Below, one piece after another: positions 544 to 60,381 of a DNA stretch of 64,000 nucleotides. The notes under the pieces are model-generated. The model saw only the letters and a program-made list of their open reading frames with translations. It was not told where the DNA came from and ran no database searches. The first letter of the stretch is position 1. Every line of letters begins with the position of its first letter. Source of the stretch: Minisyncoccia bacterium (GTDB lineage Bacteria; Patescibacteriota; Minisyncoccia; Phycocordibacterales; JAACPR01). The stretch spans positions 3,431 through 67,430 of the forward strand of contig JBGSLH010000016.1 in NCBI GenBank assembly GCA_041740795.1, written 5' to 3'. The translations under genes and the position numbers were made by a program.

Positions 544-3375
544 ATGAAATCATACGATCACAAGTCCATTGAGGCCAAATGGCAAAAGCAGTGGACCGAG
601 CAGAATCTTTTTAAGACAGTCGAAAATCCCAAAAATAAGATGTACATTCTTATCGAGTTTCCATACCCGTCCGGAGATCTCCATGTCGGCCACTGGTATG
701 CGTTTGCAGTAACTGACATTTTTGCGAGGTACATGCACCATGTCGGCAAGGATGTACTTTTTCCTATCGGATTTGATGCGTTCGGACTTCCAGCAGAGAA
801 CGCCGCAATCAAACGAGGACTCAATCCCAAGACATGGACCTATTCCAATATGGCAGTCATGACAAACCAGCTCAAGAATATGGGGACGATGTTCGATTGG
901 GACAAAAAAATCGTGACGTGCGATCCTTCGTATTACAAATGGACACAGTGGTTGTTTCTCCAATTTTATAAAAAGAATCTGATTCACCACGAGCAGACTC
1001 ACGTTAACTGGTGTCCTTCTTGTAAAACAGTCCTTGCAAACGAACAGCTCGACAGCGGATTGTGCGAACGTTGTGGAAGCACTGTTGAACAAAAAGAAAT
1101 GATGCAATGGAATATCGCTATCACACAGTATGCAGACAAGCTTATTGATGATCTTGAACAGGTCAAATGGCCCAATCACATCAAGGAAGCGCAGAAGAAC
1201 TGGATTGGTCGAAGTACCGGTGCGTATTTTTCATTCGACATTCAAGACAGCGTCGAAAAAATTAAAGTCTTCACAACTCGTCCTGATACCTTGTTCGGTG
1301 TTACATACGTGGTAATTGCTCCTGAACATGATCTTGTTCAAAAATTAAGATCTCAAATCACCAATAGGTCTGAGGTCGATGCGTATATCCAAAAAACAAA
1401 TCAAAAGACCGATCTCGACAGACAAGCAAGTAAAGAAAAATCAGGGATACAACTACAAGGACTTTTTGCAATACATCCTGCTACACAAGAGCACATACCT
1501 GTATTCATCGCAGATTATGCTCTTGCTCGATATGGGACTGGATGTGTAATGGCTGTACCTGCGCATGATGAAAGGGATTTTGAATTTGCTTCAAAGTTTA
1601 ATTTGCCAATTAAGCATGTAATTCGTCCTGTTCGAGTAGATTCAACTAATCCACCACAAGAAGGAAAGAAAGATGTATACAGAACAAACGTTCATGTTTT
1701 TGTGCGAAACCCCAAAGATAATACGTACTTATGTTTGAAATGGAAAAAATTCGATTGGAATACGTTTATTATTGGAGGAGTTGAAAAAGGAGAGGATATT
1801 ATTGAAGCTGCCAAAAGAGAAGTGCTGGAAGAAACAGGGTATAAAAATATTAAATTGATTCAAACACTTGGAGAAGGTGTTGAAGCACATTATTTTGCGG
1901 CTCACAAAGATGAAAACCGAATCTCAATTTCTCTACCTATTCTTTTTGAACTGATTGATGAAGAACGACACGAAGTTTCTACAGAAGAATCGGTGCAAGT
2001 AGAACCATATTGGTCTACTCTTGAAACTGTTAAAAAAGGACCTTTCACTTGTTCAGAACTGGATGTATGGCTTGATCGTTTAGAAAACATTCCACATGCA
2101 ATGCTTGAAAAGGGTACAGTATTCAATTCAGGTGACTTTGATGGAATTTCTTCAGAAGAAGCCAAATTCAAGATCACAGAAAAATTTGGAGAAGTTGCAA
2201 CCACATACAAACTTCAAGACTGGTCAGTATCACGACAACGATATTGGGGATGTCCTATCCCGATGATTCACTGTAGTTCATGTGGGATTGTGCCTGTTCC
2301 CGAAAATCAGCTCCCTGTACAACTTCCTGAAATGGAAAAAATAGAAATACGAGATGATGGCAAATCTCCACTCGCACACAATCAAGAATGGGTAAACATA
2401 CCTTGTCCTGTCTGTGATGCTCCTGCAAGGCGAGAGACAGACACTCTCGATACATTTGTTGATTCAAGTTGGTATTACACTCGATATGTGGACATGCTCA
2501 ATATTGAAGCATTCGCAGACAAGAAAAAACTTGATACCTGGATGCCTATTGATTTTTATTCAGGTGGAAGCGAGCACACGACGAGACATCTTCTATATGC
2601 TCGATTCGTATACAAAGTCATGCACGATCTCGGACTTGTTCCACAATCAGAACCTTTTATGAAAAGAAACAATAGAGGTCTTATCCTCGGACCGGACGGA
2701 AACAAGATGAGCAAATCCAAAGGTAATGTAATCAATCCAGACGAGTTAGTAGAAAAAGTTGGTGCTGACGTTGTGCGTTCATACCTTGCTTTTATCGGCC
2801 CATACAACGAAGCAGGGAGTTATCCATGGGATCCGAACGGAGTCGTAGGTATTCGAAGATTTTTTGAACGTGTGTGCGAACTCGCAGACAGAATTTCAAC
2901 AGAAGATTCAAAAGAATCTCTCATTGCCCTCAATACGATGCTTTCACAGATTACGTATGACTTTGAACAACTCAAACTCAACACTGCATTATCTAAACTT
3001 ATGATTTGTGTGAATATTTTAGAAAAAAGCAATTTTTCGAAGCAGACATTCCAATCGCTTCTCATTGTGCTCAACTCATTCGCACCACATATCGTGCAAG
3101 AACTCTGGTCACAGACAGACGGAGTAGGCTTTATTCATACCCAAAAATTCCCGGCTGCAGATCAGTCTCTACTTGGGCAACAAGGTATAAAAATAGCTGT
3201 TCAAGTTAATGGAAAAACTCGAACCGTATTAGAATTATCACCTGATGCATCGCAGGAGGAAGTACTCTCACTTGCAAAAGCATCATCTGAAATCATCAAG
3301 TGGACAGAAGGAAAAACCATTGTCAAAGAAATCTACGTACCTCAAAAACTGGTCAGCCTGGTCGTAAAGGAATAA
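544..3375 (+). CDS. leuS: Leucyl-tRNA synthetase carrying an inserted Nudix domain
   Basis: 943-aa ORF. It has the class I motifs PYPSGDLHVGH (HIGH) and NKMSKSKGN (KMSKS) and the CP1 editing signature TTRPDTLFGVTYVVIAPEH. Confidence 0.95.
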   Translation: MKSYDHKSIEAKWQKQWTEQNLFKTVENPKNKMYILIEFPYPSGDLHVGHWYAFAVTDIFARYMHHVGKDVLFPIGFDAFGLPAENAAIKRGLNPKTWTYSNMAVMTNQLKNMGTMFDWDKKIVTCDPSYYKWTQWLFLQFYKKNLIHHEQTHVNWCPSCKTVLANEQLDSGLCERCGSTVEQKEMMQWNIAITQYADKLIDDLEQVKWPNHIKEAQKNWIGRSTGAYFSFDIQDSVEKIKVFTTRPDTLFGVTYVVIAPEHDLVQKLRSQITNRSEVDAYIQKTNQKTDLDRQASKEKSGIQLQGLFAIHPATQEHIPVFIADYALARYGTGCVMAVPAHDERDFEFASKFNLPIKHVIRPVRVDSTNPPQEGKKDVYRTNVHVFVRNPKDNTYLCLKWKKFDWNTFIIGGVEKGEDIIEAAKREVLEETGYKNIKLIQTLGEGVEAHYFAAHKDENRISISLPILFELIDEERHEVSTEESVQVEPYWSTLETVKKGPFTCSELDVWLDRLENIPHAMLEKGTVFNSGDFDGISSEEAKFKITEKFGEVATTYKLQDWSVSRQRYWGCPIPMIHCSSCGIVPVPENQLPVQLPEMEKIEIRDDGKSPLAHNQEWVNIPCPVCDAPARRETDTLDTFVDSSWYYTRYVDMLNIEAFADKKKLDTWMPIDFYSGGSEHTTRHLLYARFVYKVMHDLGLVPQSEPFMKRNNRGLILGPDGNKMSKSKGNVINPDELVEKVGADVVRSYLAFIGPYNEAGSYPWDPNGVVGIRRFFERVCELADRISTEDSKESLIALNTMLSQITYDFEQLKLNTALSKLMICVNILEKSNFSKQTFQSLLIVLNSFAPHIVQELWSQTDGVGFIHTQKFPAADQSLLGQQGIKIAVQVNGKTRTVLELSPDASQEEVLSLAKASSEIIKWTEGKTIVKEIYVPQKLVSLVVKE
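1624..2112 (+). other. Nudix-fold insertion domain inside LeuRS
   Basis: About 160 extra residues lie between AHDERDFEFASKFNLPIKHVI and GTVFNSGDFDG. They contain an exact Nudix box GGVEKGEDIIEAAKREVLEETGY (G-x5-E-x7-REUxEExGU) at 1774..1842. Confidence 0.75.
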
Positions 3376-17345: not shown

Positions 17346-17352
17346 GATACAT

Positions 17353-17380
17353 GTCATCCCGCACTTGATGCGGGATCTCG
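17353..17380. repeat. Half copy (single hairpin) of the GTCATCCCGCA palindromic repeat family
   Basis: GTCATCCCGCACTTGATGCGGGATCTC is 27/27 identical to 36488-36514. The hairpin ATCCCGCA/TGCGGGAT sits 8 nt after the rpsI stop. Confidence 0.8.
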
Positions 17381-18027: not shown

Positions 18028-19923
18028 ATGGCAAAAATACTTGGAATCGATTTAGGAACAACAAACTCAGCGATGGCAATCATCGAAGCATCAGAACCAC
18101 GTATAGTTGAAAACTCAGAAGGTGCACGAACGACACCTTCAATCGTGGCAATCTCAAAGAACAACGAACGACTCGTGGGACAGACAGCAAAACGTCAGTC
18201 AGTTACAAATCCCCAGAACACAGTGTTTGGAATCAAACGATTCATTGGACACTCCTTTGATGACAGTTCCGTAGAAAAAGACATGAAGACTATTCCATAT
18301 CAGATCAAAAAGACTGAGAATGGAGGAGTGGCTGTTGCTATGTCCGGGACAGACTATCGACCTGAAGAAATCTCTGCGATGATCCTTTCGAAATTGAAAG
18401 CGGACGCAGAAGCTCGAACAGGAGAAACTATTACAGAAGCAGTCATTACGGTTCCTGCATATTTTAATGATGCACAACGGCAGGCAACCAAAGACGCAGG
18501 TAAAATTGCAGGTCTTGATGTAAAAAGAATTATCAATGAACCAACTGCTGCAGCACTTGCATATGGCTTTGGTAAAAAGAAAGATGAAAAAATAGTAGTG
18601 TACGACTTTGGAGGAGGAACGCTCGATGTTTCTGTGCTTGAAGTAGGAGATGATGTAATTGAAGTAAAGTCGACAGATGGAGATTCACACATGGGAGGAA
18701 AAGATATTGATCAAAAAATAATTCAGTGGATTATTGATGAATTCAAAAAACAAACAGCGATCGATCTTGCAAAGGATCCACTCGCCCTGCAACGACTCTA
18801 CGAAGAGGCCGAGAAGGCAAAGATTGAGCTTTCTACTGCGAACGATACAGAGATCAATATTCCATTCATAGCATCAGGTCCAAACGGTCCCGAGCATCTT
18901 GTACAGAAATTGTCACGAGCAAAGCTCGAAGAACTTGCAATGGAATTCATCGAACGATCTCTTGAAATCACAAAACGTGCTCTCGAAGCATCACCCTTTA
19001 AAAAGGAAGACATCCAGGAAATCATCCTTGTTGGAGGACAAACTCGAATGCCACTTATTGGACAACGAGTAAAGGAATTTTTTGGCAAAGAACCCAACCG
19101 ATCAATCAATCCTGACGAAGTAGTTGCTCTTGGAGCAGCTATCCAAGGAGGAATTCTCCAGGGTGATGTGAAAGATGTACTTCTTCTCGATGTAATTCCA
19201 CTTTCTCTTGGAATTGAAACAATGGGAGGAATTGCTACAAAACTTATCGAAAAGAATACGACCATTCCAGCAAGCAAGTCTCAAGTATTCTCGACTGCCG
19301 CAGATAATCAGACTCAGGTAGAAATCCATATCGTACAAGGAGAACGGGCTCAGGCAACTGACAACAAGTCTCTTGGACGATTTGTTCTCGATGGAATCCC
19401 ACCAGCACCACGAGGAATCCCTCAAGTAGAAGTAATCTTTGATATCGATGCCAATGGAATTCTCAAGGTTTCTGCAAAAGATAAAGCAACCAACAAGGAG
19501 CAGTCTATCCGAATCGAAGCATCATCAGGACTTTCGAAGGAAGAAATTGAAAAAATGACAAAGGATGCAGAAGCTCATGCAAGCGAAGATGAGGCAAAAC
19601 GAAAACTTATAGAACACAAAAATACTGCGGAGCAGACTATCTACGCATCTGAAAAACTGCTCAGTGAGCACAAGGATAAGATAGAAGAAGCGGATCAGAC
19701 ATCACTTACAGAAAAAATTGCAGATCTTCGAACAAAGATCTCGACAGACAATGCGTCAGATATCGATACTGCGACAGCTGAACTTTCAAAGGTAATGAAT
19801 GACGTTTCTACCAAAATGTACCAGAAAGCTCAGGAAGAAAAAGTTCCTGGAGAAAATCCAGAAGCAAAAGAAGCGGAGGAAGTGAAGAAAGAGGAGGGTG
19901 AGAGTCCTGAACCAACTCAGTAA
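18028..19923 (+). CDS. dnaK: Molecular chaperone DnaK (Hsp70)
   Basis: [31 protein letters not shown]. Confidence 0.97.
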
Positions 19924-19935
19924 TGTTTATAAAAG

Positions 19936-19959
19936 AAAGCCGCCCTTCGGGCGGCTTTT
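19936..19959. terminator. Bidirectional intrinsic terminator after dnaK
   Basis: AAAGCCGCCCTTCGGGCGGCTTTT, a GC stem flanked by an A-run and a T-run. Confidence 0.8.
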
Positions 19960-20291
19960 GCTAATTTGTCACTATAAATCTTCCAGGCAATACAAGGGAC
20001 ACGCAGACTTGAGCCTGTCAAAGCCCCTTGAAACCACGTCGTGTCGGCATTTGAATTGGTACAGGAGTTCGGTTTCGTCAGGATAAAGCTTAATTATAAG
20101 CAGCTGGGCTGCCAAGAGTTGCTTGAGCTTGAAATCAAACTTATAGGCGAGAATGACGATTTTATTATAGTTGCACCTCTTGCTGAAGTATATCCCGCTA
20201 ATTGGCATGTTCATTTGAAACTATATTAGACGGAATTTTATACAAGTCAAATGCCTTTTATTTATCGTATTTTCTGGTAAAATCACCTCAC

Positions 20292-21171: not shown

Positions 21172-21636
21172 ATGATTCAAATTGGATTTTTAACCATCGA
21201 TGTAATTATTTTATTAGTCATCTTCTGTTTTACTTTTTTTATAGCTTTCAAAAAAAGTAAAAAAAGTGTGGCACGTTTTGTGCTTCCGTTCTACGTCACA
21301 ACTTTGATCTATACAACTCTTCCGTTCAAGGCAACAGAAGCATCTGCAAAAATAATGTTGTTTCTCGTAACATACACTATCTTGGTATTCCTCATGAAAA
21401 AATCAATCACTGCCGTTGGGGGAATTACAGGAGGAAGACATTTTCTTGACTCGATCCTTCTCAGCTTTGCAGCGATTTTTTCACTTTTCATTGCATACTA
21501 CAAGATCCTTCCCCTTGAGAAGATCATTAAGATCAATTTTCCTTTTAGTGCACTCATTCTCGAAAATGTTCCGTATTATGCGTTAATCAGTATTCCACTT
21601 GTATTGATATATATCTCAAACGCACATCGAGACTAG
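21172..21636 (+). CDS. Hypothetical multi-pass membrane protein
   Basis: 154-aa ORF with four hydrophobic helices. Confidence 0.55.
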   Translation: MIQIGFLTIDVIILLVIFCFTFFIAFKKSKKSVARFVLPFYVTTLIYTTLPFKATEASAKIMLFLVTYTILVFLMKKSITAVGGITGGRHFLDSILLSFAAIFSLFIAYYKILPLEKIIKINFPFSALILENVPYYALISIPLVLIYISNAHRD

Positions 21637-21812
21637 GTGGAGATATTTCTAAACGAGTCATTCTGCAGACCTGTTCAAAACTTAAAAAACCTGCGAAATG
21701 ATTCTTCCAAGGGACCCGCCGGTTACGACACCCAGCTGTCAGAATCATTTCGCAGGTTTTTCTTTGTTTTGTTAGGTCGAAGCCGATGAGAGAAGAACAT
21801 ATCTCCACCTAG
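21633..21812. repeat. Long-hairpin intergenic element, copy 1 (apex inverted)
   Basis: The outer stem 21633-21646 pairs with 21799-21812. A perfect 21-bp inner stem 21685-21705/21741-21761 encloses a 35-nt loop. That loop carries the reverse complement (23/25) of the 25-mer found at 49608 and 60447. The flank blocks ATTCTGC and GTTTTGTTAGGTCGAAGCC are shared with the other two copies. Confidence 0.85.
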
Positions 21813-21849
21813 TCTCTGTGCACCTTACCTTGTTGCATATTTTTGACAG

Positions 21850-22055
21850 AGAGTTACGATTGAAAATGGATATGACCTCCCACAGAAACGACAGTAGCGG
21901 AGCTTCATCACAGGAAGCTGAAACGGAAGAAGGATTCAATTCCTCACACACCAAGCGAAGGAAGCAAGCCTTCCTGAACTGCAGGAAGTATCGAGGGCGC
22001 AAGTCTCGCAAGCCGCGAGGCAGACACCTCGTCACACGTTGAGATTCACTCGTTC
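21850..22055 (+). ncRNA. Candidate structured RNA or leader upstream of trpS (unclassified)
   Basis: Locally GC-rich: about 58% in 21941-22040 by hand count. It has several local hairpins (AGCTTC/GAAGCT, AGGAAG/CTTCCT, CGAG..CTCG) with GCAA/GCGA loops, and it ends in a strong terminator. Confidence 0.3.
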
Positions 22056-22090
22056 AAATGCCCGGCAACCTTCGGTTGCCGGGCATTTTT
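22056..22090 (+). terminator. Strong intrinsic terminator 30 nt before trpS
   Basis: AAATGCCCGGCAACC-TTCG-GGTTGCCGGGCATTTTT. Confidence 0.85.
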
Positions 22091-22121: not shown

Positions 22122-23087
22122 ATGTCAAAACTCGTATTATCAGGAGCAAAGCCTACAGGAATGCTCCACATCGGAAATTACTTCGGTGCTCTTAGACAGT
22201 TCGTGGAACTTTCAAATCAAAACGAGGGTCGTTTTTTTATTGCTGATCTACACGCACTTATTTCAACACAAGACAAAGGTGAACTTCAAAAAAACATCTA
22301 CAACCAGGTTCGAACATATCTCGCAATAGGACTCGATCCAGACAAGGTTACAATTTTTAAACAATCAGATATTCCCGAGGTGACCGAACTCGGATGGATT
22401 TTTAATTGTCTTATCACTATGCCACAACTTATGCGAGCACACTCATACAAGGATGCAGAAGCCAAGAACAAAGAGGTGAGTGTAGGGCTTTTTGATTACC
22501 CTGTACTGATGGCAGCAGATATTCTTATTCACAATGCAGACATTGTCCCTGTTGGAAAGGATCAAAAGCAGCATGTCGAAATAGCACGAGAGATTGCGCG
22601 CAAGTTCAACAACACCTACAAAGAACTTTTCAAGGAACCGCAAGAATATATCATCGAATCAGTCGAGACTGTTCCTGGTACCGACGGACAGAAGATGAGC
22701 AAAAGTTATGAAAACACAATTCCACTTTTTGCGACAAAGGAAGAAATTACAAAGGCTGTGATGAGTATTCCAACAGATTCTGCTGCAATGGAAGATCCCA
22801 AAGACCCACACACAAATACCATTTATAAAATCCATAGTCTTTTCCTTACAAAAGAACAACGCGCAGAAGTAGAAGCCAAATACAAAAATGGAGGGATGGG
22901 GTACAAGGAGGCCAAAGATATGTGCGTAGAATCAATCGAAAATTTTATTGCTCCAATGCGAGCTACATACGAATCCATCACGTCAGACCAGGTGCGGGAA
23001 GTGCTACAAAACGGAAAAGAAAGAATCCGTCCGTATGTTATCAAGCAGATGGAGCTTGTGAGGGAGGCCGTCGGCATTTCAATTTAG
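22122..23087 (+). CDS. trpS: Tryptophanyl-tRNA synthetase
   Basis: GAKPTGMLHIGNYFGA (HIGH-like), KMSKS (GQKMSKSYEN), 321 aa. Confidence 0.95.
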   Translation: MSKLVLSGAKPTGMLHIGNYFGALRQFVELSNQNEGRFFIADLHALISTQDKGELQKNIYNQVRTYLAIGLDPDKVTIFKQSDIPEVTELGWIFNCLITMPQLMRAHSYKDAEAKNKEVSVGLFDYPVLMAADILIHNADIVPVGKDQKQHVEIAREIARKFNNTYKELFKEPQEYIIESVETVPGTDGQKMSKSYENTIPLFATKEEITKAVMSIPTDSAAMEDPKDPHTNTIYKIHSLFLTKEQRAEVEAKYKNGGMGYKEAKDMCVESIENFIAPMRATYESITSDQVREVLQNGKERIRPYVIKQMELVREAVGISI

Positions 23088-35310: not shown

Positions 35311-36011
35311 CTTAACGTTTCTGGTTCGGACGATTCAACAGAAGGTTTTACAGCATTCTTTTTACTTACGTGTCGGAGCATAAAAGCAAATATAGCGAGA
35401 CTTCCGATAGTCACACCAACAGCAGTGATAATACCCAAAGTAATCATCCAAGCAGGGATTTCTTCGATAAAGAAAAGTCCAAGTGAACTGATTGTCAAGA
35501 TTGGCACAACGCTCACAGCCATGTGCACGATGATAAAAAAAGTGAAGTTGATGGATGTCAGTCCTGCTGCATAACTTGCAATCTCAGGCATGCTCAAGGC
35601 AGCAAGTCGCATACTTATAAATCCTTTTGGTGTTGCCATGAGTACAAGTGTATTCTCTATGTACTCCATGTTTTTTTTACCTGCAAAATACGAAACGATT
35701 GGTCGACCAAAAAATCTACTTATGTAGAAAGTAATAATGGCACCAATAAGGTCTCCGATGAAGGAGTAAAGTATACCGTGCCAGAATCCAAAGAGCGGTA
35801 CGGAGAAGACGTACAGAGCCGTTCCAGACAGCGGAGCGAACACGACAGTAGATGTCTTGGCCAAGATATAGAGAATTGGAGCCCATATTCCTGCACTTGC
35901 AATATAATCCTTGAATGCATTGAGATCAAGAAAAAAACTTCCGATCGAAAGAATTCCAACCAGTGTAATTATTGCAATAGAGACCCAGTGGTCCTTGAGA
36001 TATTTGGTCAT
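35307..36011 (-). CDS. TVP38/TMEM64 (DedA-related VTT domain) membrane protein
   Basis: 234-aa polytopic ORF. PLSGTALYVFSVPLFGFWHGILYSFIGDLIGAIITFYISRFFGR. Confidence 0.75.
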   Translation of the reverse strand: MTKYLKDHWVSIAIITLVGILSIGSFFLDLNAFKDYIASAGIWAPILYILAKTSTVVFAPLSGTALYVFSVPLFGFWHGILYSFIGDLIGAIITFYISRFFGRPIVSYFAGKKNMEYIENTLVLMATPKGFISMRLAALSMPEIASYAAGLTSINFTFFIIVHMAVSVVPILTISSLGLFFIEEIPAWMITLGIITAVGVTIGSLAIFAFMLRHVSKKNAVKPSVESSEPETLS

Positions 36012-36048
36012 TACTGAAAATCATACCATATGATATAGTGGGCTCATA

Positions 36049-37371
36049 ATGAAAGAGATTACGCACTATACTGCCATCGTCATCGGTGGAGGAGCATCTG
36101 GCATGATGACTGCAGGACAAATTGTCGCACACAATCCGGATGCGACTGTTTTGATTATTGAAAAGAACAAGCGTCTTGGGGAAAAACTTTCAATTACAGG
36201 AGGAGGAAGATGCAATATTACGAACGCCACTTTTGATGACAAGATTCTACTCAAGAATTACGGAGTTGCGGAAAAATTTCTATACTCTGCTTTTGACCAG
36301 TTCGGGATACAAGATACAATTAATTTTTTTGAAAAAAGAAACCTTCCCATTGTCATACAAGCCAACAATCGAGCTTTTCCAAAAAGTGAGAAAGCAATTG
36401 ACGTAACGAACGTCATGCAAAAATTCTGTACACACCCTGATATTAAGATCCTGACAAATACTGTTGTTACAAAAATCAATACGGGGTGTCATCCCGCACT
36501 TGATGCGGGATCTCAGGATAAAACAACGAGATCCCGGAATGAATCCGGGATGACATTAATCACTAATATAGAAATACAAAAAGGGGAGAGGTACACTGCC
36601 GATTCTTATATATTGGCTACAGGAGGACTCTCCCATCCCGAAACCGGTTCAACTGGAGACGGCTTCAAGTGGCTGACGGATCTTGGGCACAACGTCAAAC
36701 AACCGACTCCGACACTTGTACCTTGGATCGTTTCTGATTCGTGGATTCATGCACATGCTGGTACGGCGCTCGATGATGCAAAAATCATTGTATCTGTTGA
36801 TGGTAAAAAATATATTTCATGTACAGGACGGATACTTTGTACCCACACTGGACTGTCTGGTCCACTCATTTTGAATAATTCATCTAAGCTTCAGGATGCA
36901 CTCCTGAGCGGAGTCGTAACTGGAACACTAGATCTCTACCCACAACTTAATCACAAAGAAATTGATCAGGTTATTTTGAATATTTTTGAAAAAAACAAGA
37001 ATAAGAAGTTCAGGAACGTCATTGATGAGATTACACGATTACACTCAGGATTTTTAATATTGCAAAAACACCTACCACTTGATTTTGACATTCCCGTACA
37101 CTCAGTATCAAAAGAATACCGCAAGTCACTCACACAGCTTCTCAAAAGCATTCCACTTTTTATCAGAGGGCTTGAGGGTTATGAGAAGTCCGTAGTAGCT
37201 GACGGAGGGATCAGTCTCACCGAAGTTGATACCAAGACTATGCGATCCAAGAAGATTTCAAATCTTTTTATAACAGGTGACCTTCTCGATATCAGACGCC
37301 CGTCAGGAGGATATTCCTTGCAGCTCTGTTGGACTACAGGGTTCGTGGCAGGCACACACTGCCTTTCATAA
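36049..37371 (+). CDS. HI0933/YhiN-family FAD-dependent oxidoreductase with an in-frame repeat insertion
   Basis: IVIGGGASGMM dinucleotide fold, ITGGGRCN, ILATGGLSHPETGSTGDGF, and a C-terminal GGYSLQLCWTTG. Confidence 0.85.
   Translation: MKEITHYTAIVIGGGASGMMTAGQIVAHNPDATVLIIEKNKRLGEKLSITGGGRCNITNATFDDKILLKNYGVAEKFLYSAFDQFGIQDTINFFEKRNLPIVIQANNRAFPKSEKAIDVTNVMQKFCTHPDIKILTNTVVTKINTGCHPALDAGSQDKTTRSRNESGMTLITNIEIQKGERYTADSYILATGGLSHPETGSTGDGFKWLTDLGHNVKQPTPTLVPWIVSDSWIHAHAGTALDDAKIIVSVDGKKYISCTGRILCTHTGLSGPLILNNSSKLQDALLSGVVTGTLDLYPQLNHKEIDQVILNIFEKNKNKKFRNVIDEITRLHSGFLILQKHLPLDFDIPVHSVSKEYRKSLTQLLKSIPLFIRGLEGYEKSVVADGGISLTEVDTKTMRSKKISNLFITGDLLDIRRPSGGYSLQLCWTTGFVAGTHCLS
36488..36554. repeat. 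Full double-hairpin copy of the GTCATCCCGCA palindromic element, inside a coding sequence
   Basis: GTCATCCCGCActtgaTGCGGGATCTC ... GAGATCCCGGAatgaaTCCGGGATGAC. It is translated in frame as CHPALDAGSQDKTTRSRNESGMT. Confidence 0.85.
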
Positions 37372-37383
37372 TTTAAAAAGAAA

Positions 37384-37410
37384 AAGGACGGCGCATTGCA
37401 TGCACCGTCC
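37384..37410 (-). terminator. Intrinsic terminator (minus-strand sense)
   Basis: AGGACGG...CCGTCCT hairpin. The T-run (TTTTTCTTTTT) is present only on the minus strand. Confidence 0.6.
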
Positions 37411-37474
37411 TCAAAAATTAAGTTAGTCTTCATCAACTCACTTAAGTGGTTCAAAAAACGTACCATCCTCATTA

Positions 37475-37630
37475 TCAATATTCATCAATAGGATCCTCTA
37501 TTACATCGCCCCTCTCGAGTTTACAATAAAGAGCCTTGCAACCTAAATAGATCAAAAGAATGATAAAGACTATCGGGATGAGCAATATAGTACAGGCGGG
37601 AGCTTCAGCAAAAAAAGGTATTGTTTTCAT
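37475..37630 (-). CDS. Small hypothetical membrane protein (51 aa, below the ORF-track cutoff)
   Basis: My own translation is MKTIPFFAEAPACTILLIPIVFIILLIYLGCKALYCKLERGDVIEDPIDEY. It has one TM helix, and a minus-strand terminator lies about 65 nt downstream. Confidence 0.35.
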   Translation of the reverse strand: MKTIPFFAEAPACTILLIPIVFIILLIYLGCKALYCKLERGDVIEDPIDEY

Positions 37631-38099
37631 TATTTTCGAATATGTAGTAAAGGTTCATGACTACTGCTACTATATCTAATTTTTTAAAATAGGGAAGAGA
37701 GTCCCCTATTTCAGGGGAGAAAAATGAGAGGCTCAAAACTGCCCGAATTTAAATTTAAAAATAAAAAAGGAGATAAGGCTCGAGTCAGATTCCAAGAGAT
37801 CCCGATAGAGGAGAGTATAAGATAAATTAATAGGTGCATTTTAAAACCGATCGAGATTCGAGTTTGATGAATTGATTTAAAAGCCTGATTTAGATATAAA
37901 GTGTCGCAAATAAACATTGTGCGACACACTGTGTATCCTATACACTAGATAGGCACAAGCCTTAAATTCTTGTTTTATTAGTATGTACTTAGAAATAATA
38001 TAAAGATATTTTTATTTGAATAATCTCTTTAAGATGTTTGAGGGATACTTGAATCCATATAAAAAGTTAATTACCTCATAAAGGAAGCTGGAGGTTAAG

Positions 38100-38309
38100 C
38101 TAGGATTTTCTTTTTTCCTTTATCAAAAACTTCACATGTTCTTTGACCATTGGATGCAATTCTTGCCTAAATGTAACAAGCAGAGCCTCCTTCCAATTAG
38201 TCATGCCACTTTCGTACGCATCTTTAATATTTATGTAAATATTCTCCGCTTCTTTCTGCATTGTAATAGTCTCCTGTGTTCCCTGTCTCATATCAATATA
38301 TCTTACCAT
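38100..38309 (-). CDS. Hypothetical protein
   Basis: 69-aa ORF downstream of the 38360..38920 ORF. No motif. Confidence 0.35.
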   Translation of the reverse strand: MVRYIDMRQGTQETITMQKEAENIYINIKDAYESGMTNWKEALLVTFRQELHPMVKEHVKFLIKEKRKS

Positions 38310-38359
38310 TAAAATTAAAAAGTGCCCTTGAAGTTATCGCGGGCACCATTGGGATTGAG

Positions 38360-38920
38360 TTATGAAATCGGAGTATCATGACACGCCTGAGCAAGAACTG
38401 CATCAGCCACGTTCCTGATTCCTTGATTTACTATCACGTATTCCTTCAAATTTTTCCATTGTCCATTAAGGGCGCTGGCAGACTGTGCTGCGTAATGGGT
38501 ACTCTTGAGCAACGGCAACGTGACCTGACGTGAACAAATCAGGTGTTCCAGAATTCTCATATCGAGCATGTTGTATAGCAGTGTGTTTGAATTGCATTGT
38601 TTGAGCAGGTATTCAAGCACCACTACATCCTGGGGACTAGTCGAATTGAGCAGATAGTGAAAAGACCTCACTACCCGTCTTTCAATATTCTTTGAAATCT
38701 TGGTCGGTCTTCCGATGGCGTCCGTTAGGTTAAAGTCCTTCAGGCAACGTCCTAATAGAAATGTCTTAACGACATTTTCTAGAATGTGACCTGTGCGATA
38801 GCTTCTTAGAAGATTGACGAGTGCTATCTTTTTCTTTTTTGATCTCGTATTTCGAAGGACAAGCATCTGATCGTTTTTGAAGCTGTTTCGAGCTTCAATA
38901 AATATTGCATTGGCAAACAT
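38360..38920 (-). CDS. Hypothetical protein
   Basis: 186-aa ORF with no TM helix and no motif I recognise. Confidence 0.5.
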   Translation of the reverse strand: MFANAIFIEARNSFKNDQMLVLRNTRSKKKKIALVNLLRSYRTGHILENVVKTFLLGRCLKDFNLTDAIGRPTKISKNIERRVVRSFHYLLNSTSPQDVVVLEYLLKQCNSNTLLYNMLDMRILEHLICSRQVTLPLLKSTHYAAQSASALNGQWKNLKEYVIVNQGIRNVADAVLAQACHDTPIS

Positions 38921-38980
38921 TGTATTTAGGGATTGGAATTATCTTCCTTCAAACTACAACATATCCCCTACCCTGTCAAA

Positions 38981-39015
38981 CACAAAGGGCGCATCTTGCG
39001 ATGCGCCCTTTGTGT
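38981..39015. terminator. Strong bidirectional terminator after the SLT-domain gene
   Basis: ACAAAGGGCGCATC-TTGC-GATGCGCCCTTTGT. Confidence 0.8.
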
Positions 39016-39047
39016 TTGTTTAATGCAATTGTAATTGATCTTGAAGA

Positions 39048-39533
39048 TTATCGAAGCGCAAACGTGTTGGATGCGTCCCAACAAGATGACGAGTGGACCC
39101 AGGGTTTTACCCCTTGAGTCTTGTACAGGTATTTTGCGTAGTTGATATTACCCTCGAGAGAGTAGATATCAAGACCAAGCTTTTTTGATGTACTTAAGTG
39201 GTATTTCTCATTGATCTGCATAAGCCCAACGTCTTGGGAGTTTACACGACCTCGAAGTACCGCTCCGGTCTGGTCAAATTGACGGGTTTGCGATTCACAA
39301 GAAGCGATCTTCTTGAGAATCGGCGCGTCAGCAAACTGCTCAGCGATTATCTCTTCAGTTGTCTTTACTTTCACTTGTTCTGAAATTTCAGAATAAGTCT
39401 CTTCTTCAACAATACTTTCGGTATTGGTTGGTGCCTCGATTACTTGAGCGTCGCTAATCGATGCGATCAACATTGCGAGTCCGATTGTCAGTTGTATTAT
39501 AAGCCTATTCGTAATGGTAATCTGCACATGCAA
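39048..39533 (-). CDS. Secreted lytic transglycosylase (SLT) domain protein
   Basis: Signal-like N-terminus, then IASCESQTRQF and GLMQINEKYH (catalytic Glu plus a GLMQI motif). The start is TTG or GTG. Confidence 0.75.
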   Translation of the reverse strand: MHVQITITNRLIIQLTIGLAMLIASISDAQVIEAPTNTESIVEEETYSEISEQVKVKTTEEIIAEQFADAPILKKIASCESQTRQFDQTGAVLRGRVNSQDVGLMQINEKYHLSTSKKLGLDIYSLEGNINYAKYLYKTQGVKPWVHSSSCWDASNTFALR

Positions 39534-39593
39534 CCATGTCTCTCGTATGCAGGTCCTAGGCTGTGTCCCGGTTTACCGGCCCTAAAACATAAG

Positions 39594-39612
39594 GTCTGGA
39601 TATTATCCAGAC
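39594..39612 (-). terminator. Hairpin terminator after the 39651..40025 gene
   Basis: GTCTGGATA-T-TATCCAGAC, a perfect palindrome. On the minus strand it is followed by CTTATGTTTT. Confidence 0.5.
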
Positions 39613-39650
39613 TTGAGAGATATCATAGCACATATCACCTAAAAAATCAA

Positions 39651-40025
39651 TCATTTACACCCTGAATATGCCTTGAATCCTGCCCGCTCAGCACTTATTA
39701 TATCCTTAAAATACAACATATTTTGAATAGAAAGGGTCTTGGCTTTATTGCATCCTGATGGGTAATAATACGTCCCTCTTTTGGAGGCAACAAAGGGATT
39801 TTGGCTCAGTTGTGAATTCGAGACCTGTGACTCCCCTTTTTGAGATATTTGCTTCGGATTTAATTGTTCGGTAGCCACAATCTGTAGTGTCGTCCGCTCG
39901 CCAAGCAGTATACGGCTCCAGACCCAGCTCACATAGAGCTCGGCAAGCACGATAAGGGCCATAATGCCCCACCCAATATACCGCTTCTTGCTTTTTTCCC
40001 AAAAATATACTATCATTTGCTTCAC
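39651..40025 (-). CDS. Membrane-anchored protein with a sunset-type (Cys-containing) C-terminal domain
   Basis: TM helix GWGIMALIVLAELYVSW. The C-terminal YYYPSGCNKAKTLSIQNMLYFKDIISAERAGFKAYSGC fits the YHxxxC...A..AGYxxC pattern. Confidence 0.55.
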   Translation of the reverse strand: MKQMIVYFWEKSKKRYIGWGIMALIVLAELYVSWVWSRILLGERTTLQIVATEQLNPKQISQKGESQVSNSQLSQNPFVASKRGTYYYPSGCNKAKTLSIQNMLYFKDIISAERAGFKAYSGCK

Positions 40026-40061
40026 TAATCTTAATTAAATTAGATAAATAAAATATAAAGT

Positions 40062-40334
40062 ATGTCTAAAGTTAAAGCCGGTGGAACATCAAAAAACCTG
40101 ACTGACTCTGCACCTAAGTTTTTGGGTGTCAAAATCGCTGATGGTCAGACAGCAAAAGCTGGCGCAATCATCATAAGACAACGTGGAACACGTTATCTTG
40201 CTGGTCCAAATACAGATCTCGGAAAAGACCACACTATCTTTGCACTTAAAGCAGGTGTGGTTAAATTTTCAAATAAAAGAAAGGTTCGATTCGACGGCAA
40301 GCCGGTCGTTCGAAAGTTGGTACAGATCGTATAA
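40062..40334 (+). CDS. rpmA: 50S ribosomal protein L27
   Basis: KAGGTSKNLTDSAPKFLGVKIADGQ...IIIRQRGTRYLAGPN. Confidence 0.93.
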   Translation: MSKVKAGGTSKNLTDSAPKFLGVKIADGQTAKAGAIIIRQRGTRYLAGPNTDLGKDHTIFALKAGVVKFSNKRKVRFDGKPVVRKLVQIV

Positions 40335-40344
40335 TTTCCAAAAT

Positions 40345-40374
40345 AAAAGGTGCGCCCTTCGGGCGCACCTTTTA
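40345..40374. terminator. Bidirectional terminator between rpmA and rplI
   Basis: AAAAGGTGCGCCCTTCGGGCGCACCTTTT. Confidence 0.85.
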
Positions 40375-40390
40375 TTTTGGATAATATACT

Positions 40391-40828
40391 TTACAATGCT
40401 TTTATTTCTATATTAAAATCCCCTACTAGCCATGGCGACTTAACTTTCACTACAAAAATTCCCGCTTCTTTGAATTCAAAAGGTACGATGTATTTGATAT
40501 CAAACATAATACCCTTCTCCTTAAATATCTTCTTGAGTTGTTCCACCTTGAACTTAGAAAAAAGGTGTCCTTGCGCGTTTGAAGGAAGCTGGACGACTAT
40601 CTTTTCGTTTTGAAGCTGCAAGATAGCATTCTTCATTGTTTCGATTTGTACAGTTTCTGCTTTTAGTGCTTGCTCTTGTTTTGTCTTAAGTGCATTTAGT
40701 GCCTGAGGAGTCGCGATTTGGGCAAGTCCCTTAGGTAAAAGTGCGTTCTGTGCAAAACCGTCGGCCACATCTTTCACGTCATTTTTCTTTCCGATCTTTG
40801 GAACGTCTTTCAAGAATATTACTTTCAT
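40391..40828 (-). CDS. rplI: 50S ribosomal protein L9
   Basis: [36 protein letters not shown]. Confidence 0.9.
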
Positions 40829-40838
40829 ATGGGTTGGA

Positions 40839-42029
40839 TTATTTCAATAATTCGAGTGCTTTTTGAAGTTGCGTATCTTCTTTTGTCTTTTTGAAAAGTT
40901 CAGGATCGAACTTTACTTCTACATCAGGTTCAATTCCCTTGAGTGAGATTGAGTTACCATTTGGAGTCAGCCACCGTGCAATAGTTACCTTGAGTGCAGT
41001 ATCAGGAGTAATGTCTATCAATTCCTGCACAGATCCTTTTCCAAAAGACTTAGCCCCGACAAGTCGTGCAACACCCTGCTCCTTGAGTGCCCCAGCCACG
41101 ATTTCAGAAGCAGATGCGGAACCTTCGTCGATCATCACTATCATGTTCGGCTTGAACTTCAGGAGATTATATCCCTTGCTTCGAAATACTTTTGCAGGAA
41201 TATCTGAACCGAAGTCCTCACTCACAATAGTCTTGCCAGTTGGAAGAAACCAACTTGAGATATCAACTGCAGCATCGAGATATCCGCCTGGATTGCCTCG
41301 CATGTCGAGAATGAGCTTGGTCTTCTTAGATCGTACAAATTGCTGCATCGCAGTCTTGAACTCTGTCTGAGCAGTTGCACCGAACGTATAGAGTTTAATA
41401 ATAAAAACGTCTCCTTTCTCTTCTGTCTCAAGTGTTGGAACAACAATCTGATCTCGACTAATTTTGATTTCAACTTCCTTTTGAGTGCCTTTTTTGATAA
41501 TACCAAGAGTTACAATTGTTCCCTTCTTGCCCCTAATCAGACTCACAGCTTCTTCGACCTTCATACCCAATGTATTGTGTCCATCAATTGATACAATCAG
41601 ATCACCACTTTCGATCCCTGCTTTTTGTGCAGGTGAATTCTTGAGTGGTGCAACAACAGTGAGGCGTTCTTCTAGGATTCCTACCTCCATCCCAACCCCT
41701 TCGAACGTACCTTCGATCGTCTCGTCAAATTTGGTCTTTTCTTCAGGAGTGAAGAAAACCGTGTACGGATCCTCGAGAGAATCTACCAACCCACTGATTG
41801 CGCCATACATCTTGTCTGTATCCGAAATGTTTTGAGTTGAAGATGCAGAAACAAATTTTTCATTGATAGTATTCCATACTTTCCAAAACGCAGTCATGTC
41901 GGCAGTTTCACTCGCCTGCGTGTGCCTAAAAGAAACAGTTCCGTTACCGATGTAAAATCCCGCACCAAATCCTAGTGCAATAGTCAGACACATCCATGTA
42001 AAAATCTGTGTTCTTAATTTAGAATTCAT
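40839..42029 (-). CDS. Carboxy-terminal processing (S41) peptidase with a PDZ domain
   Basis: PDZ segment [13 protein letters not shown], then [10 protein letters not shown] and [10 protein letters not shown]. The ORF is open from 42065, but MNSKLRT at 42029 precedes the TM anchor. Confidence 0.88.
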
Positions 42030-47911: not shown

Positions 47912-49009
47912 TTATTCCTCTTCTATCTTTATGCCCTCATCGATCAGAATTGGATCAAGCTCAGCAGAGTTCCCTGCAATGCGCATGATGTCCTTGTCGA
48001 TTTTTTTGAATTCTTTTGTAGAAAAATTATATTGGTTGATCACTGTCCCGAGATTCTTGCCGAGTTTGTTGTGATAGTCCTCGTATGACTTGAGATGGTT
48101 TCCAAGTTCACGCACATGCTTTTGGATCTGAATCGCACCTTCTTGTATCTTGTATGCCCTGAAGCCATGGAGTACGGACTGTAAGTACGCAGCGAATGTC
48201 GTAGGAGACACAATGATCACTTTCTTTTCGTTGTACGCATAATCGATAAGGCTTCGCGTATTCACCTTGTTTGCGCCGACTTCGTTCACAAGCAAATCAT
48301 AATAGATTCCTTCTGCAGGGATGAACATGAACGCAAAAGGGAGTGTTCCTTCTGCGGGTCTGATGTATTTTGATGTCTCATCGATTCTGCGCTTAAGATC
48401 ATTCTTAAAATCCCGTTCTAATTCGGCTTTACGATTGTCATCCGTTTCGTTTACTAATCGTGAATAGTTTTCAAGAGAAAATTTAGCGTCTACTGGAATA
48501 ATTCCGTCCTTGGTTGTAATTGCAGCGTCTACAATTTCTCCATTCTTGAAACTATATTGCAACTTATACTCACTGGGAGGAAGAATATTAGAAAGAATCA
48601 GTTCTAATCCAGCTTCACCTAAGTTCCCTCTTTGTTTTTGATTCTTAAGAACTTTTTCAAGATTCTGTAATTGGTCAGCAATTGTAAAAACTTGTTTTGT
48701 AGATTCTGATACGCGAGTTACTCCTTCTGATACAGTGAGAAGTTGATCTGTCACAGACTTGTTAATGTCTTGAATCAGTTTTTGAGATCTGTTGAACTGG
48801 TCGGACACAGTTTCGGACATCTGTCGTTGAGAATCTCCAATCTTGGCATCCACCGTACGATTCATTTGGTTAATTTGTTCGAGGATGAGAGAAAAATGAG
48901 ATTGGTTGTCTTGTGGTTTGTTTTGTGAAAGTTTTGATAATACAAGGAATAAAAATGCGAGAACTGCCAGTAACAAAACGAGAGCAATAATCAAAAGTAT
49001 AGTAGTCAT
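47912..49009 (-). CDS. rmuC: DNA recombination protein RmuC
   Basis: N-terminal TM helix, a coiled coil, and a C-terminal FAFMFIPAEGIYYD...VIIVSPTTFAAYL typical of the RmuC nuclease-like domain. Confidence 0.88.
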   Translation of the reverse strand: MTTILLIIALVLLLAVLAFLFLVLSKLSQNKPQDNQSHFSLILEQINQMNRTVDAKIGDSQRQMSETVSDQFNRSQKLIQDINKSVTDQLLTVSEGVTRVSESTKQVFTIADQLQNLEKVLKNQKQRGNLGEAGLELILSNILPPSEYKLQYSFKNGEIVDAAITTKDGIIPVDAKFSLENYSRLVNETDDNRKAELERDFKNDLKRRIDETSKYIRPAEGTLPFAFMFIPAEGIYYDLLVNEVGANKVNTRSLIDYAYNEKKVIIVSPTTFAAYLQSVLHGFRAYKIQEGAIQIQKHVRELGNHLKSYEDYHNKLGKNLGTVINQYNFSTKEFKKIDKDIMRIAGNSAELDPILIDEGIKIEEE

Positions 49010-49072
49010 TGCTCTATGTTATCATAAAAAATTCTGTGGTAATATAGTAATATTACACTAATAGACGAACAT

Positions 49073-49525
49073 ATGAGCATTATTGAACAAATCAAATCAG
49101 ACATGAAAGACGCAATGCGAGCCAAGGATGCATCAGCTCTCACAGCAATCCGAGGCCTTCTCTCTGCCTTTACAAATGAACTTGTAGCTATCGGAAGGAC
49201 TCCCCAGGACACACTCTCTGACGACGAGACTCTTGTCGTAATTAAACGTGCATCAAAACAGCGCAAGGATGCGATCGAACAGTTCGAAAAAGGCGGACGT
49301 CCAGAACTTGCAGAAGGTGAAAAACTCGAACTTGCCGTTATTGAAAAATATCTACCAGCGATGATGAGTATTGATAAGATAAAAGTAATTGCAGAAGCAA
49401 AGATTACGGACTTCGGTGGCGACAAAACAAAACTAGGACAGATTATCGGCGCAGTACTCAAAGAAACAGCAGGGCAAGCCGATGGCGGAGACGTGAAGAA
49501 GGTCGTGACTGAATTATTGAGTTAA
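49073..49525 (+). CDS. GatB/YqeY domain protein
   Basis: IKSDMKDAMRAKD, VIKRASKQRKDAIEQF, VIEKYLP. Confidence 0.85.
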   Translation: MSIIEQIKSDMKDAMRAKDASALTAIRGLLSAFTNELVAIGRTPQDTLSDDETLVVIKRASKQRKDAIEQFEKGGRPELAEGEKLELAVIEKYLPAMMSIDKIKVIAEAKITDFGGDKTKLGQIIGAVLKETAGQADGGDVKKVVTELLS

Positions 49526-49527
49526 AA

Positions 49528-49711
49528 CTGGCAGAAGAGGTGTGAGGTCGGAACGATTCTGCAAACTTCTTCAAAACACGAAAAATCCTGGAAATAAATT
49601 CTGACAACTGGGTGCCGTAATCGGCGGGTCCCGGGAGGAATTTATTTCCAGGATTTTTCTATGTTTTATTAAGTCGAAGCCTAAGTGTAGGCCCCGTATC
49701 TCATCTGCCAG
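49528..49711. repeat. Long-hairpin intergenic element, copy 2
   Basis: It fills the whole gap between convergent stop codons. The outer stem is CTGGCAGA../..TCTGCCAG. A perfect 22-bp inner stem 49580-49601/49638-49659 encloses the apex 25-mer CTGGGTGCCGTAATCGGCGGGTCCC at 49608-49632. Confidence 0.85.
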
Positions 49712-49712
49712 T

Positions 49713-50486
49713 TTATACCCTCTTCAACTCAAGACACATGAACATCGGAAATTCCTTGCGAGCAGCATTCTCTGCTTCAGCTCGAGGCCCTGGTTGACTG
49801 ACCTTGTGAGAAATCCATTCTTCAATCTTCGTGATCGCAAAATTATGTTTTGCAAATACTTTAGAATATACCTGAAGTGGCCTATGGAAAGACGATGTTA
49901 TTTGCTTATCTGTTTTTTGTCCAGGATTCATGTCGATTGAAATTTCTTTCTCACTCATATATAGATCCATAACTTTGGATTGAGTTTTTTTCTTTTCGTT
50001 GTATATCCAGTCTCCATACTGTGGAATTCTGAATGCAGGATGGTTGAGCACGAGATAGATTCTTCCCTTCGGTGCAAGGAGTCGTGAGAGATTTGAAACC
50101 ACGAGATTTAAATGCTTCATGTTCTGGATCGCAAGCACGATTGTAATGACGTCAAATGTTTGTCCTCTTAGTATCACAGAGTCTTCTGCACTACCTACAG
50201 TATATGAAATTTCCTTATGATTTTTTTGAGCAATGGCGATGAGTTCCTTTCCAATATCGACTCCTGTCAGTTTTTTGGAAAAAGGAAGGAATTTTTCGAG
50301 CACAAACCCTTGTCCACATCCAAGCTCAAGAAGCGACTGATCTTTTTTGAGATCGACAAGCCGAATGAGATTAGGTAGCACAACTTGTGCATGGTATGTA
50401 TCATCTTCCTTGAGATGTGCGTCATACCAACTAGCCACCTTCCCCCATCCTGTTCCCTGTTGTTTTTTAGCATTATCTTTTTGCAT
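49713..50486 (-). CDS. Class I SAM-dependent methyltransferase
   Basis: LLELGCGQGFVLEKF (motif I) and FDVITIVLAIQNM. Confidence 0.8.
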   Translation of the reverse strand: MQKDNAKKQQGTGWGKVASWYDAHLKEDDTYHAQVVLPNLIRLVDLKKDQSLLELGCGQGFVLEKFLPFSKKLTGVDIGKELIAIAQKNHKEISYTVGSAEDSVILRGQTFDVITIVLAIQNMKHLNLVVSNLSRLLAPKGRIYLVLNHPAFRIPQYGDWIYNEKKKTQSKVMDLYMSEKEISIDMNPGQKTDKQITSSFHRPLQVYSKVFAKHNFAITKIEEWISHKVSQPGPRAEAENAARKEFPMFMCLELKRV

Positions 50487-55548: not shown

Positions 55549-55572
55549 GGGATTGAAGTTTCGTTTTATTAT

Positions 55573-55599
55573 GTCATCCCAGAATGAGTCCGGGATGAC
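55573..55599. repeat. Single-hairpin copy of the GTCATCCC...GGGATGAC repeat family
   Basis: GTCATCCCAGAatgagTCCGGGATGAC, 9 nt after the murF stop. Confidence 0.7.
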
Positions 55600-55607
55600 A
55601 AGCCTGA

Positions 55608-60283: not shown

Positions 60284-60381
60284 TACGTATTATCAGTATA
60301 AAACATCCCATAGATGTGTGGATAAGTAATCAAAAAAAATAACCTTATTTTATAGGGTTACTTAAAATATAATAAGCTCAA

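Follow-up and report, generated by a model that had tools for sequence, protein, structure and literature searches.

Inversion and homogenization of DNA through inverted repeats is a known mutational process. In plastids, loop inversions are recurrent and homoplasious, and they take place without a recombinase. Small inversions of hairpin loops in plastid non-coding DNA were reportedly described by Kelchner and Wendel in 1996 and by Kim and Lee in 2005. Two further papers (PMC9653739, PMC12928735) are relevant to the same subject. As in the repeat family reported here, short inverted repeats bracket the plastid loop, which occurs in either orientation in close relatives. Unlike the plastid cases, the present one is found on bacterial chromosomes, and its loop is a conserved GC-rich module common to dispersed copies, not a unique spacer.

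The other close relative of what we report is the class of template-switch mutations at quasi-palindromes (the Ripley/Lovett models; Monttinen & Loytynoja 2022, PMC8794818). Perfect stems, loop inversions, longer stems and compensatory changes of several bases at once all result from template switching (PMC8794818), which also homogenizes and expands the arms of inverted repeats (PMC13100816). The present family shares with these mutations perfect reverse-complement arms, one-step multi-base "compensatory" changes, loop inversion that keeps the length, and extension of the stem from the opposite flank. It differs from them in being a multi-copy and apparently mobile family with unusually long arms (14-34 bp) and a highly conserved loop, and in that its mechanism is inferred, not demonstrated.

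Several better-known elements also resemble the family in some respects. In parvovirus (AAV ITR) flip/flop hairpins and poxvirus telomeres (PMC8956199), an internal part is reverse-complemented while the stem is unchanged, as here; those hairpins, however, form linear genome ends and are inverted at each hairpin-primed replication, whereas ours are internal to the chromosome and flip rarely. Invertase switches (hin/gin, fimS) likewise have a segment bracketed by inverted repeats and found in both orientations. In contrast to them, the inverted repeats of our family change from locus to locus and enclose a segment of just 33-37 bp, no recombinase gene was found in the window scan, and mixed populations are not evidenced in the assemblies. 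The REP/BIME (REPIN) elements of proteobacteria are, like our elements, multi-copy extragenic palindromes that lie after stop codons and between convergent genes, form a mosaic of modules in either orientation, and probably serve as 3'-end stem-loops; but in REP the stem is conserved and the loop is free, whereas our family keeps its loop and varies its stems from locus to locus, the GTAG motif is missing, and no RAYT-type gene was seen. Finally, MITEs (Correia/NEMIS) are similarly non-coding, about 100-200 bp long, palindromic, gene-adjacent, polymorphic in their insertion among strains, and able to act as terminators. They have conserved terminal inverted repeats and direct target duplications, whereas copy 1, the element from which this analysis started, has locus-specific outer arms and no direct duplication, and carries instead an inverted copy of the target flank.

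Copy 1 is a member of a nested-palindrome intergenic repeat family in Patescibacteria (CPR; the clade is labelled Parcubacteria/Paceibacterota) that is undescribed so far; full-text searches of the literature found no description of such a nested-palindrome family. What is new here is not the mutational process but its setting, an unusually clean one, in an apparently mobile and terminator-like CPR repeat family.

Three copies in one stretch of DNA

The window, by which we mean the whole stretch of 64,000 nt that was analysed, holds three copies. Copy 1 as a whole extends over 21629-21816. Its inner arms (21685-21705 and 21741-21761) are 21 nt long, 100% complementary and 35 nt apart, just as an earlier note on this DNA had claimed. 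They are flanked by two "B" flanks on the + strand, the 5' flank at 21647-21684 (including CGAGTCATTCTGCAGACCTGTTCAAAAC) and the 3' flank at 21762-21798 (including GTTTTGTTAGGTCGAAGCCGATGAGAG). An outer perfect inverted repeat of 18 nt, absent from the earlier note, surrounds the copy entirely, with GAGACTAGGTGGAGATAT (21629-21646) as the left arm and ATATCTCCACCTAGTCTC (21799-21816) as the right arm. When the 196-nt region of copy 1 is folded, either strand is predicted to form a single long hairpin (-89 and -93 kcal/mol, z about -11).

The segment between the inner arms, the 35-nt apex TCCAAGGGACCCGCCGGTTACGACACCCAGCTGTC (21706-21740), carries its 24-nt core TGGGTGTCGTAACCGGCGGGTCCC on the - strand (21711-21734) and is therefore inverted relative to the B flanks. 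It matches copy 3 on the opposite strand only, agreeing with the minus strand of 60442-60476 apart from 3 mismatches in 35 positions, and 0 matches are expected by chance. A 28-nt core pattern occurs three times in the window, at 21711-21738 (-), 49605-49632 (+) and 60444-60471 (+), which agrees with the earlier statement that the apex of copy 1 is the reverse complement of that in copies 2 and 3. The flanks, as had also been stated, are not inverted: in local alignments of the copy 1 flanks with those of five other copies, the same orientation scored 26-56 and the inverted one 10-13, the latter equal to the shuffled background of about 12. The mini-hairpin of copy 1 pairs as GUCG/CGGC on the - strand and contains a C-A mismatch on the + strand, so the remark that a G-U pair is kept on one strand was correct.

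Copy 2 (49525-49714, + strand) takes up all of the space, from stop codon to stop codon, that separates yqeY (+) from a convergent methyltransferase gene (-). Its outer arms lie at 49525-49535 and 49704-49714, its B flanks are on the + strand, its inner arms (49580-49601 and 49638-49659) are 22 nt long and perfect, and its apex (49602-49637, + strand) has the core at 49609-49632. Copy 3 (60373-60545, + strand) has B flanks at 60390-60412 and 60505-60525 on the + strand, perfect inner arms of 27 nt (60415-60441 and 60478-60504), and an apex (60442-60477, + strand) with the core at 60448-60471; its outer repeat is just 6 nt (TAAGCT/AGCTTA). It is syntenic with an element in L004 (loci and contigs collected in the analysis are given by such L numbers).

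The sequences of copies 1 and 2 were recovered in a second assembly. In the Logan assembly of run SRR28170465, a 10.5-kb contig equals the window throughout copy 1, flipped apex included, and a second contig (L020) equals it throughout copy 2. The contig that holds copy 3 breaks off after about 33 nt of the apex, which we read as repeat collapse where 31-mers become common to copies, and not as an orientation bubble. The k-mer length of Logan, which we take to be 31, exceeds the length of the arms (18-27 nt), so that reads spanning an arm fix the orientation and the k-mers tie flank to apex.

Anatomy and distribution of the family

When one genome of each species was scanned for the exact pattern, the core turned up at 12 loci in three Patescibacteria MAGs. 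The scan of a single metagenome added two true copies, together with four chance hits inside a GC-rich gene, and nhmmer over the sequences collected in the analysis gave no further copies. Viral contigs had no match to the family, on which ground a phage origin was rejected. With Rfam, a tRNA was the only match in the whole window at the gathering threshold; at a permissive threshold, the best local matches were plant miRNA-precursor models far below threshold, that is, generic long hairpins.

The family combines a constant centre with variable surroundings. The apex is GC-rich and 33-37 nt long, and its 24-nt core TGGGTGCCGTAATCGGCGGGTCCC is identical in 16 of the 17 intact copies. The inner arms are AT-rich, 14-34 bp long and locus-specific, and the 397 bp that they form in 17 hairpins are uninterrupted, with one T-G (in L007). 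The innermost bases of the stem are semi-conserved, for example TTTTTCTG...CAGAAAAA. The B flanks are optional and consist of CGAAYSATTCTGCAGACCT..CAAAAY on the 5' side and RTTTTGTTAGGTCG-A-AGCC(GATGAG/TAAGTG)AG on the 3' side. Optional too is a third module, which is located within the 3' flank of L004, L007 and L012 and is also found alone. Locus-specific outer arms measure 18, 11, 18, 15, 26 and 25 bp in copy 1, copy 2, L002, L003, L004 and L012, respectively.

Genomes whose genes agree at only about 79% have the 24-nt core in identical form, and much of the B flanks as well. Such identity across genomes requires strong selection or recent horizontal spread, and a purely mutational model supplies neither. 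The predicted consensus fold of the core strand consists of GGG/CCC, a 3-nt bulge, UGCCG/CGGCG with an invariant U-G, and a UAAU loop. In three of its pairs, both sides are changed among the copies, and the core of L023 and L024 shows a double change from GCCG/CGGC to GTTG/CAAC. The invariant U-G and the G-U-preserving substitution of copy 1 hint at one preferred strand. Wobble pairs in the stems give no strand choice, as the few cases conflict (the T-G of L007 is on the B strand, and the B stems of copy 2 and L003 are mixed). Persistence of the core in either orientation fits a duplex-level or purely structural role, for example that of a GC clamp nucleating the long AT-rich stem, and an orientation-independent duplex DNA site, the second interpretation offered in the earlier note, would be compatible with the apex as well.

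Three motifs of known function were considered and rejected. A K-turn reading of the tandem G-A beside the core fails on the bulge geometry, which is unsuitable. A hammerhead-like reading of the flank (GUC...CUGAUGA) was judged by eye; there are only two helices at the conserved region, and copy 2 is without the motif. The GTTAGGT/GTTAGGC in the 3' flank of some copies recalls integron attC sites, but it has no complementary RYYYAAC as a partner (GACCTGTTC), the copies form no array, lying 11-28 kb from each other, and no integrase was found.

Orientation of the apex across copies and strains

Copies 2 and 3 had been taken to represent the family orientation, with copy 1 as the lone exception; neither view can be kept. 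Of the nine copies that bear flanks, five have a core that is flipped against the B flanks (copy 1, L002, L003, L004 and L007), and four have it unflipped (copies 2 and 3, L001 and L012). Both subtypes of B flank hold both arrangements, which implies at least two changes of arrangement. The arrangement of copy 1 recurs in another genome together with near-identical flanks (L002, L003). As L002, whose flanks are near-identical to those of copy 1, is likewise flipped, the arrangement of copy 1 was probably inherited from its source copy and not made at this locus; in other words, the flipped state probably came with the insertion.

A change of orientation can be seen directly at the dnaK-dnaJ hairpin of two strains, L023 (NCBI GCA_040384145.1) and L024 (Logan SRR26556799), which encode an identical neighbour protein of 154 aa. 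The 18-bp arms and the flanks are identical in the two strains except for 1 SNP, and the 37 nt that they enclose in one strain are the exact reverse complement of those in the other, non-conserved linker bases included. The flip is also the only local minus-strand HSP in the strain comparison. Since the arms are identical and the loops are exact reverse complements, the segment bracketed by the arms was inverted in place. The apex therefore has no fixed polarity, and this pair shows that the DNA bounded exactly by the arms is occasionally turned round within its locus.

This is the one strictly same-locus flip that was found. At two pairs of orthologous loci the arrangements are also opposite: L004 and copy 3 differ in the arrangement of B flanks and apex, and L016 and copy 2 in the orientation of the core relative to the genes. 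These could be independent insertions, because the arms are unrelated. Relative to the upstream gene, the core is sense in L008, L009, L018 and L023 and antisense in L005, L006, L010 and L024. Flips are infrequent: a single orientation was found in four strains of 98-99% identity at another hairpin (L031-34) and in eight strains at a decayed copy (L030-37). Each assembly has one orientation, and the two assemblies of the same sample agree at copies 1 and 2.

Concerted arms and the insertion of copy 1

The arms of L002, L004 and L005, three paralogues in one MAG, are related by descent. Each difference among them is mirrored on the opposite arm, a 1-nt indel included, so the arms stay perfect. 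The earlier note had suggested that template switching would explain why the stems of copy 1 and its relatives are perfect, and these mirrored changes, indel included, favour the suggestion on the side of the arms.

Copy 1 is absent from four sister lineages (L022; L023-27; L028-29; L038 and L039), in which the orthologous protein is 77-90% identical. From this comparison, copy 1 is evidently a recent insertion of 196 bp (21637-21832), and where it lies the sister genomes read ...GA(C/T)TAG directly followed by TTGCA.... The junctions, TAG followed by GTGGAG and CCTTG followed by TTGCAT, show no direct repeat and no direct target duplication. With GAGACTAG, its first 8 nt, the left outer arm contains the upstream gene's ancestral end, stop codon included, whereas the last 8 nt of the right outer arm are a new, inverted copy of that gene end. 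On the right, within the inserted DNA, CTAGTCTC(TGTGC) repeats in inverted form the ancestral gene end (GCACAtc)GAGACTAG, a sequence that the four sister lineages retain. The inverted copy is 8 nt long, or 13 nt with a 2-nt gap: the 5 nt that follow the outer right arm, TGTGC, to 21821, mirror the upstream GCACA and leave a gap of 2 nt.

A second case of such copying may be L002, whose right outer arm overlaps an ancestral T-rich tail that L010 also has and whose left arm is an inverted copy of this tail. This example is less strong, since orthology is limited to the neighbour on the right. At the sister locus for copy 2 (L043), the gene order is different.

Inverted repeats as the probable cause of inversion and homogenization

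Based on these observations, we put the probability at about 70% that the inverted repeats themselves drive the inversion of the apex and the homogenization of the arms, in a family of terminator-like elements, and that copy 1 is not a regulated switch. A perfect inverted repeat would give rise to replication template switching across the hairpin, or to recombination between the arms, by which the apex would be inverted. The same process would also rewrite one arm from the other, leaving perfect arms in which each change is mirrored, and would make inverted copies of flanking DNA, by which the arms would lengthen.

The hallmarks of such a process are found at separate loci. Loop inversion with the length kept and the arms unchanged is seen between L023 and L024. 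Single-step mirrored changes of the arms, including indels and multi-base changes, are seen in L002, L004 and L005 and in the double change of the core. New sequence that is the reverse complement of nearby older sequence is seen in copy 1 and, less clearly, in L002. The in-place flip and the mirrored arm changes of the paralogues speak for the first of the interpretations proposed earlier, namely inversion mediated by the inverted repeats or template switching. At the sequence level, the products of template switching, of RecA-type recombination between the arms and of a structure-specific enzyme cannot be separated; recombination between the arms would give those of template switching.

The two strains L023 and L024 offer a rare direct example of a bacterial hairpin loop inverted in place between near-identical strains. 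The arms of the inverted repeats in this family appear to evolve in perfect concert and to grow through inverted copying of neighbouring gene ends; perfect stems and "compensatory" changes in these genomes need not imply selection on RNA structure. The analysis also defines an unannotated family of repeats that marks gene ends and breaks short-read assemblies in the Patescibacteria, a large group about which little is understood.

Alternative explanations

One alternative is that the apex, together with a few AT pairs of the stem, is a small mobile module that enters existing hairpin loops either way round, the two orientations being independent insertions. Several observations agree with it: the apex is seen with and without B flanks, the core scarcely varies among the intact copies of several genomes, the stem is partly conserved at its innermost bases, the arms at orthologous loci are unrelated, and presence is polymorphic, with copy 1 missing in the sisters and no copy in L028, L038 and L043. 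The flip between L023 and L024, however, would need exact excision and re-insertion at the same phosphodiester bonds. Moreover, the descent-related arms of L002, L004 and L005 indicate that stem and apex duplicate together as one unit, and no candidate enzyme was found. We regard this explanation as unlikely.

It is also rather unlikely, in our judgement, that the family represents a novel type of non-autonomous mobile DNA, whose apex would be read by a structure-specific enzyme or would nucleate cruciform extrusion, and which would spread by hairpin template switching. Such elements would duplicate the target flank in inverted instead of direct form, with the flip of the apex as a side effect. 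As a milder and equally tentative variant of this idea, the apex may be an orientation-independent duplex signal, for example an uptake-type sequence in bacteria that naturally scavenge DNA. A 24-nt core read by an enzyme or an uptake system would be new biology, if true.

Very unlikely, we consider, is a programmed invertible switch, in which a dedicated and possibly structure-specific enzyme would flip the apex and so alter what the transcript or the DNA presents. Flips do recur, the apex is very strongly conserved in both orientations, and there is a hint of one functional strand, as the invariant U-G of the core+ strand would be C-A on the other strand and the substitution in copy 1 keeps pairing only on the core+ strand. 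The bracketing arms, on the other hand, differ at each locus, which leaves no conserved recombination site, and the orientation of the core relative to the upstream gene is mixed. A single orientation was found in the two assemblies of one sample, and there are no flips among the sets of four to eight strains with 98-99% identity; the switch interpretation of the earlier note finds no support in these data.

That note had itself thought a classical invertase improbable, and the scans point the same way. Pfam detected no site-specific (tyrosine or serine) recombinase domain and no transposase domain in 40 ORFs of the window, 14 of which are without a Pfam match; the matches obtained represent general functions, such as RecR, DnaB, aminoacyl-tRNA synthetases and cell-wall enzymes. 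Precomputed Pfam results for the genes of the identical Logan contigs L013, L020 and L021 contain no recombinase or transposase either, and include ribosomal proteins, GrpE, DnaK, DnaJ, TrpRS, ScpA/B, RmuC, a methyltransferase, an aminoacyl-tRNA synthetase and GreA. By position, these contigs also cover the majority of the remaining large ORFs of the window; 49009-49461 (-) overlaps yqeY, and 58604-58906 is outside the scan. The recombinase search thereby covered 40 ORFs of the window and the genes of the Logan contigs.

Could the polarity of the apex be set by the direction of replication or transcription, with copy 1 separated from the other copies by a switch in skew? The sign of both GC and AT skew does change near 37-40 kb, past copy 1 and before copies 2 and 3, which places the core on the same strand relative to the skew in all three, and at copies 1 and 3 the transcript of the upstream gene reads the same strand of the apex. 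With n = 3, though, this pattern arises by chance 1 time in 4, L023 and L024 differ in orientation at one and the same locus, the polarity relative to genes is mixed in other genomes, and the B flanks do not agree with the skew. The idea is highly improbable.

That the flipped apex is an assembly artefact is scarcely credible: inverted repeats are a classic cause of misassembly and the Logan contig of copy 3 ends within the apex, but that break looks like repeat collapse, the two independent assemblies are alike base for base through copies 1 and 2 (so that the sequence of copy 1 is no artefact of one assembler), the arms are shorter than the k-mers that link flank to apex, and the same arrangement is found in unrelated MAGs.

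Position after genes and a probable terminator-like role

Most copies begin 0-20 nt past a stop codon. An exception is L010, in which the hairpin lies about 120 nt past the stop, with the third module in between. Judging by position and shape, the elements are most likely terminators or 3'-end stem-loops, probably bidirectional. Their position and their A/T runs fit a terminator, but the loop of 33-37 nt is atypical, and a consensus scan calls none of these elements.

At L016, which is orthologous to the site of copy 2, there is a hairpin of apex and stem without B flanks. After dnaK, a family hairpin is present in the relatives L023, L024 and L031-34, and a decayed one in L022. In L028, L038 and the window, what follows dnaK at this spot is a GC-rich terminator of the ordinary kind.

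Surroundings of the hairpin copies

Copy 1 of the long-hairpin element lies just 5' of a small plus-strand ORF (window 21867-22042), which is followed by a canonical terminator (22056-22088). At the position of this ORF, a 49-codon gene is called in the related contigs L038-L041. The site of copy 1's insertion thus lies between two neighbouring genes that probably share a transcript. Copy 2 is about 0.5 kb from a minus-strand rmuC homologue (window 47912-49009), with yqeY between them. In E. coli, inversion at short inverted repeats is elevated when RmuC is mutated. The closeness of rmuC to copy 2 is probably a coincidence.

The dnaK-dnaJ spacer is highly variable among relatives (window 19923-20202; contigs L023 8965-9118, L028 8546-9124, and L030 8540-9031). 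In the window, an 80-codon ORF on the minus strand occupies this spacer; L030 and L038 have a minus-strand gene of 161-163 aa there, and L023 (GCA_040384145.1) and the strains L031-34 have nothing but a family hairpin.

Optional and repeated modules

An optional module of about 42 nt, CACTACAAGAGCACTTCTATTTTGATAAATCAAAATATGTCG, sits within the conserved 3' B flank of the hairpin loci L004 (2367-2408), L012 (4675-4716), and L007, with GTCG on one side and AGCC on the other, and it is bordered by a direct ATGTCG repeat. The module is also found away from the hairpin element, at L010 ~1590-1640 and L004 ~2140-2170.

A second repeat family, distinct from the long-hairpin element, consists of small hairpins, GTCATCCCYGCG..GCRGGGAT (window 17352-17379, 36487-36555, 55572-55600, and 62612-62649). 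These hairpins form inverted terminal pairs that flank a short spacer, an arrangement resembling that of MITEs. At one locus, an entire element of about 120 bp is inverted in L038 (10734-10853) relative to L039 (9932-10051) and L040 (2250-2369), in strains that are about 96% identical.

Database records and other features of the window

Exact-sequence look-up returned no record for three window proteins (21172-21636, 22122-23087, and 49073-49525). Because genes of equal length are called at these positions in the Logan contigs L020 and L021, whose DNA is identical to the window wherever aligned, the missing records look like an index gap and not a biological difference.

GC skew and AT skew both switch sign at window ~36000-41000. 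A terminus or origin of replication may lie here, or the sign change may reflect a gene-strand switch. Long perfect hairpins with small loops are located near this change (38977-39018 and 40329-40389). Finally, the plus-strand leucyl-tRNA synthetase gene (window 544-3372) encodes a NUDIX domain (residues 379-496) directly after the editing domain, an unusual combination.
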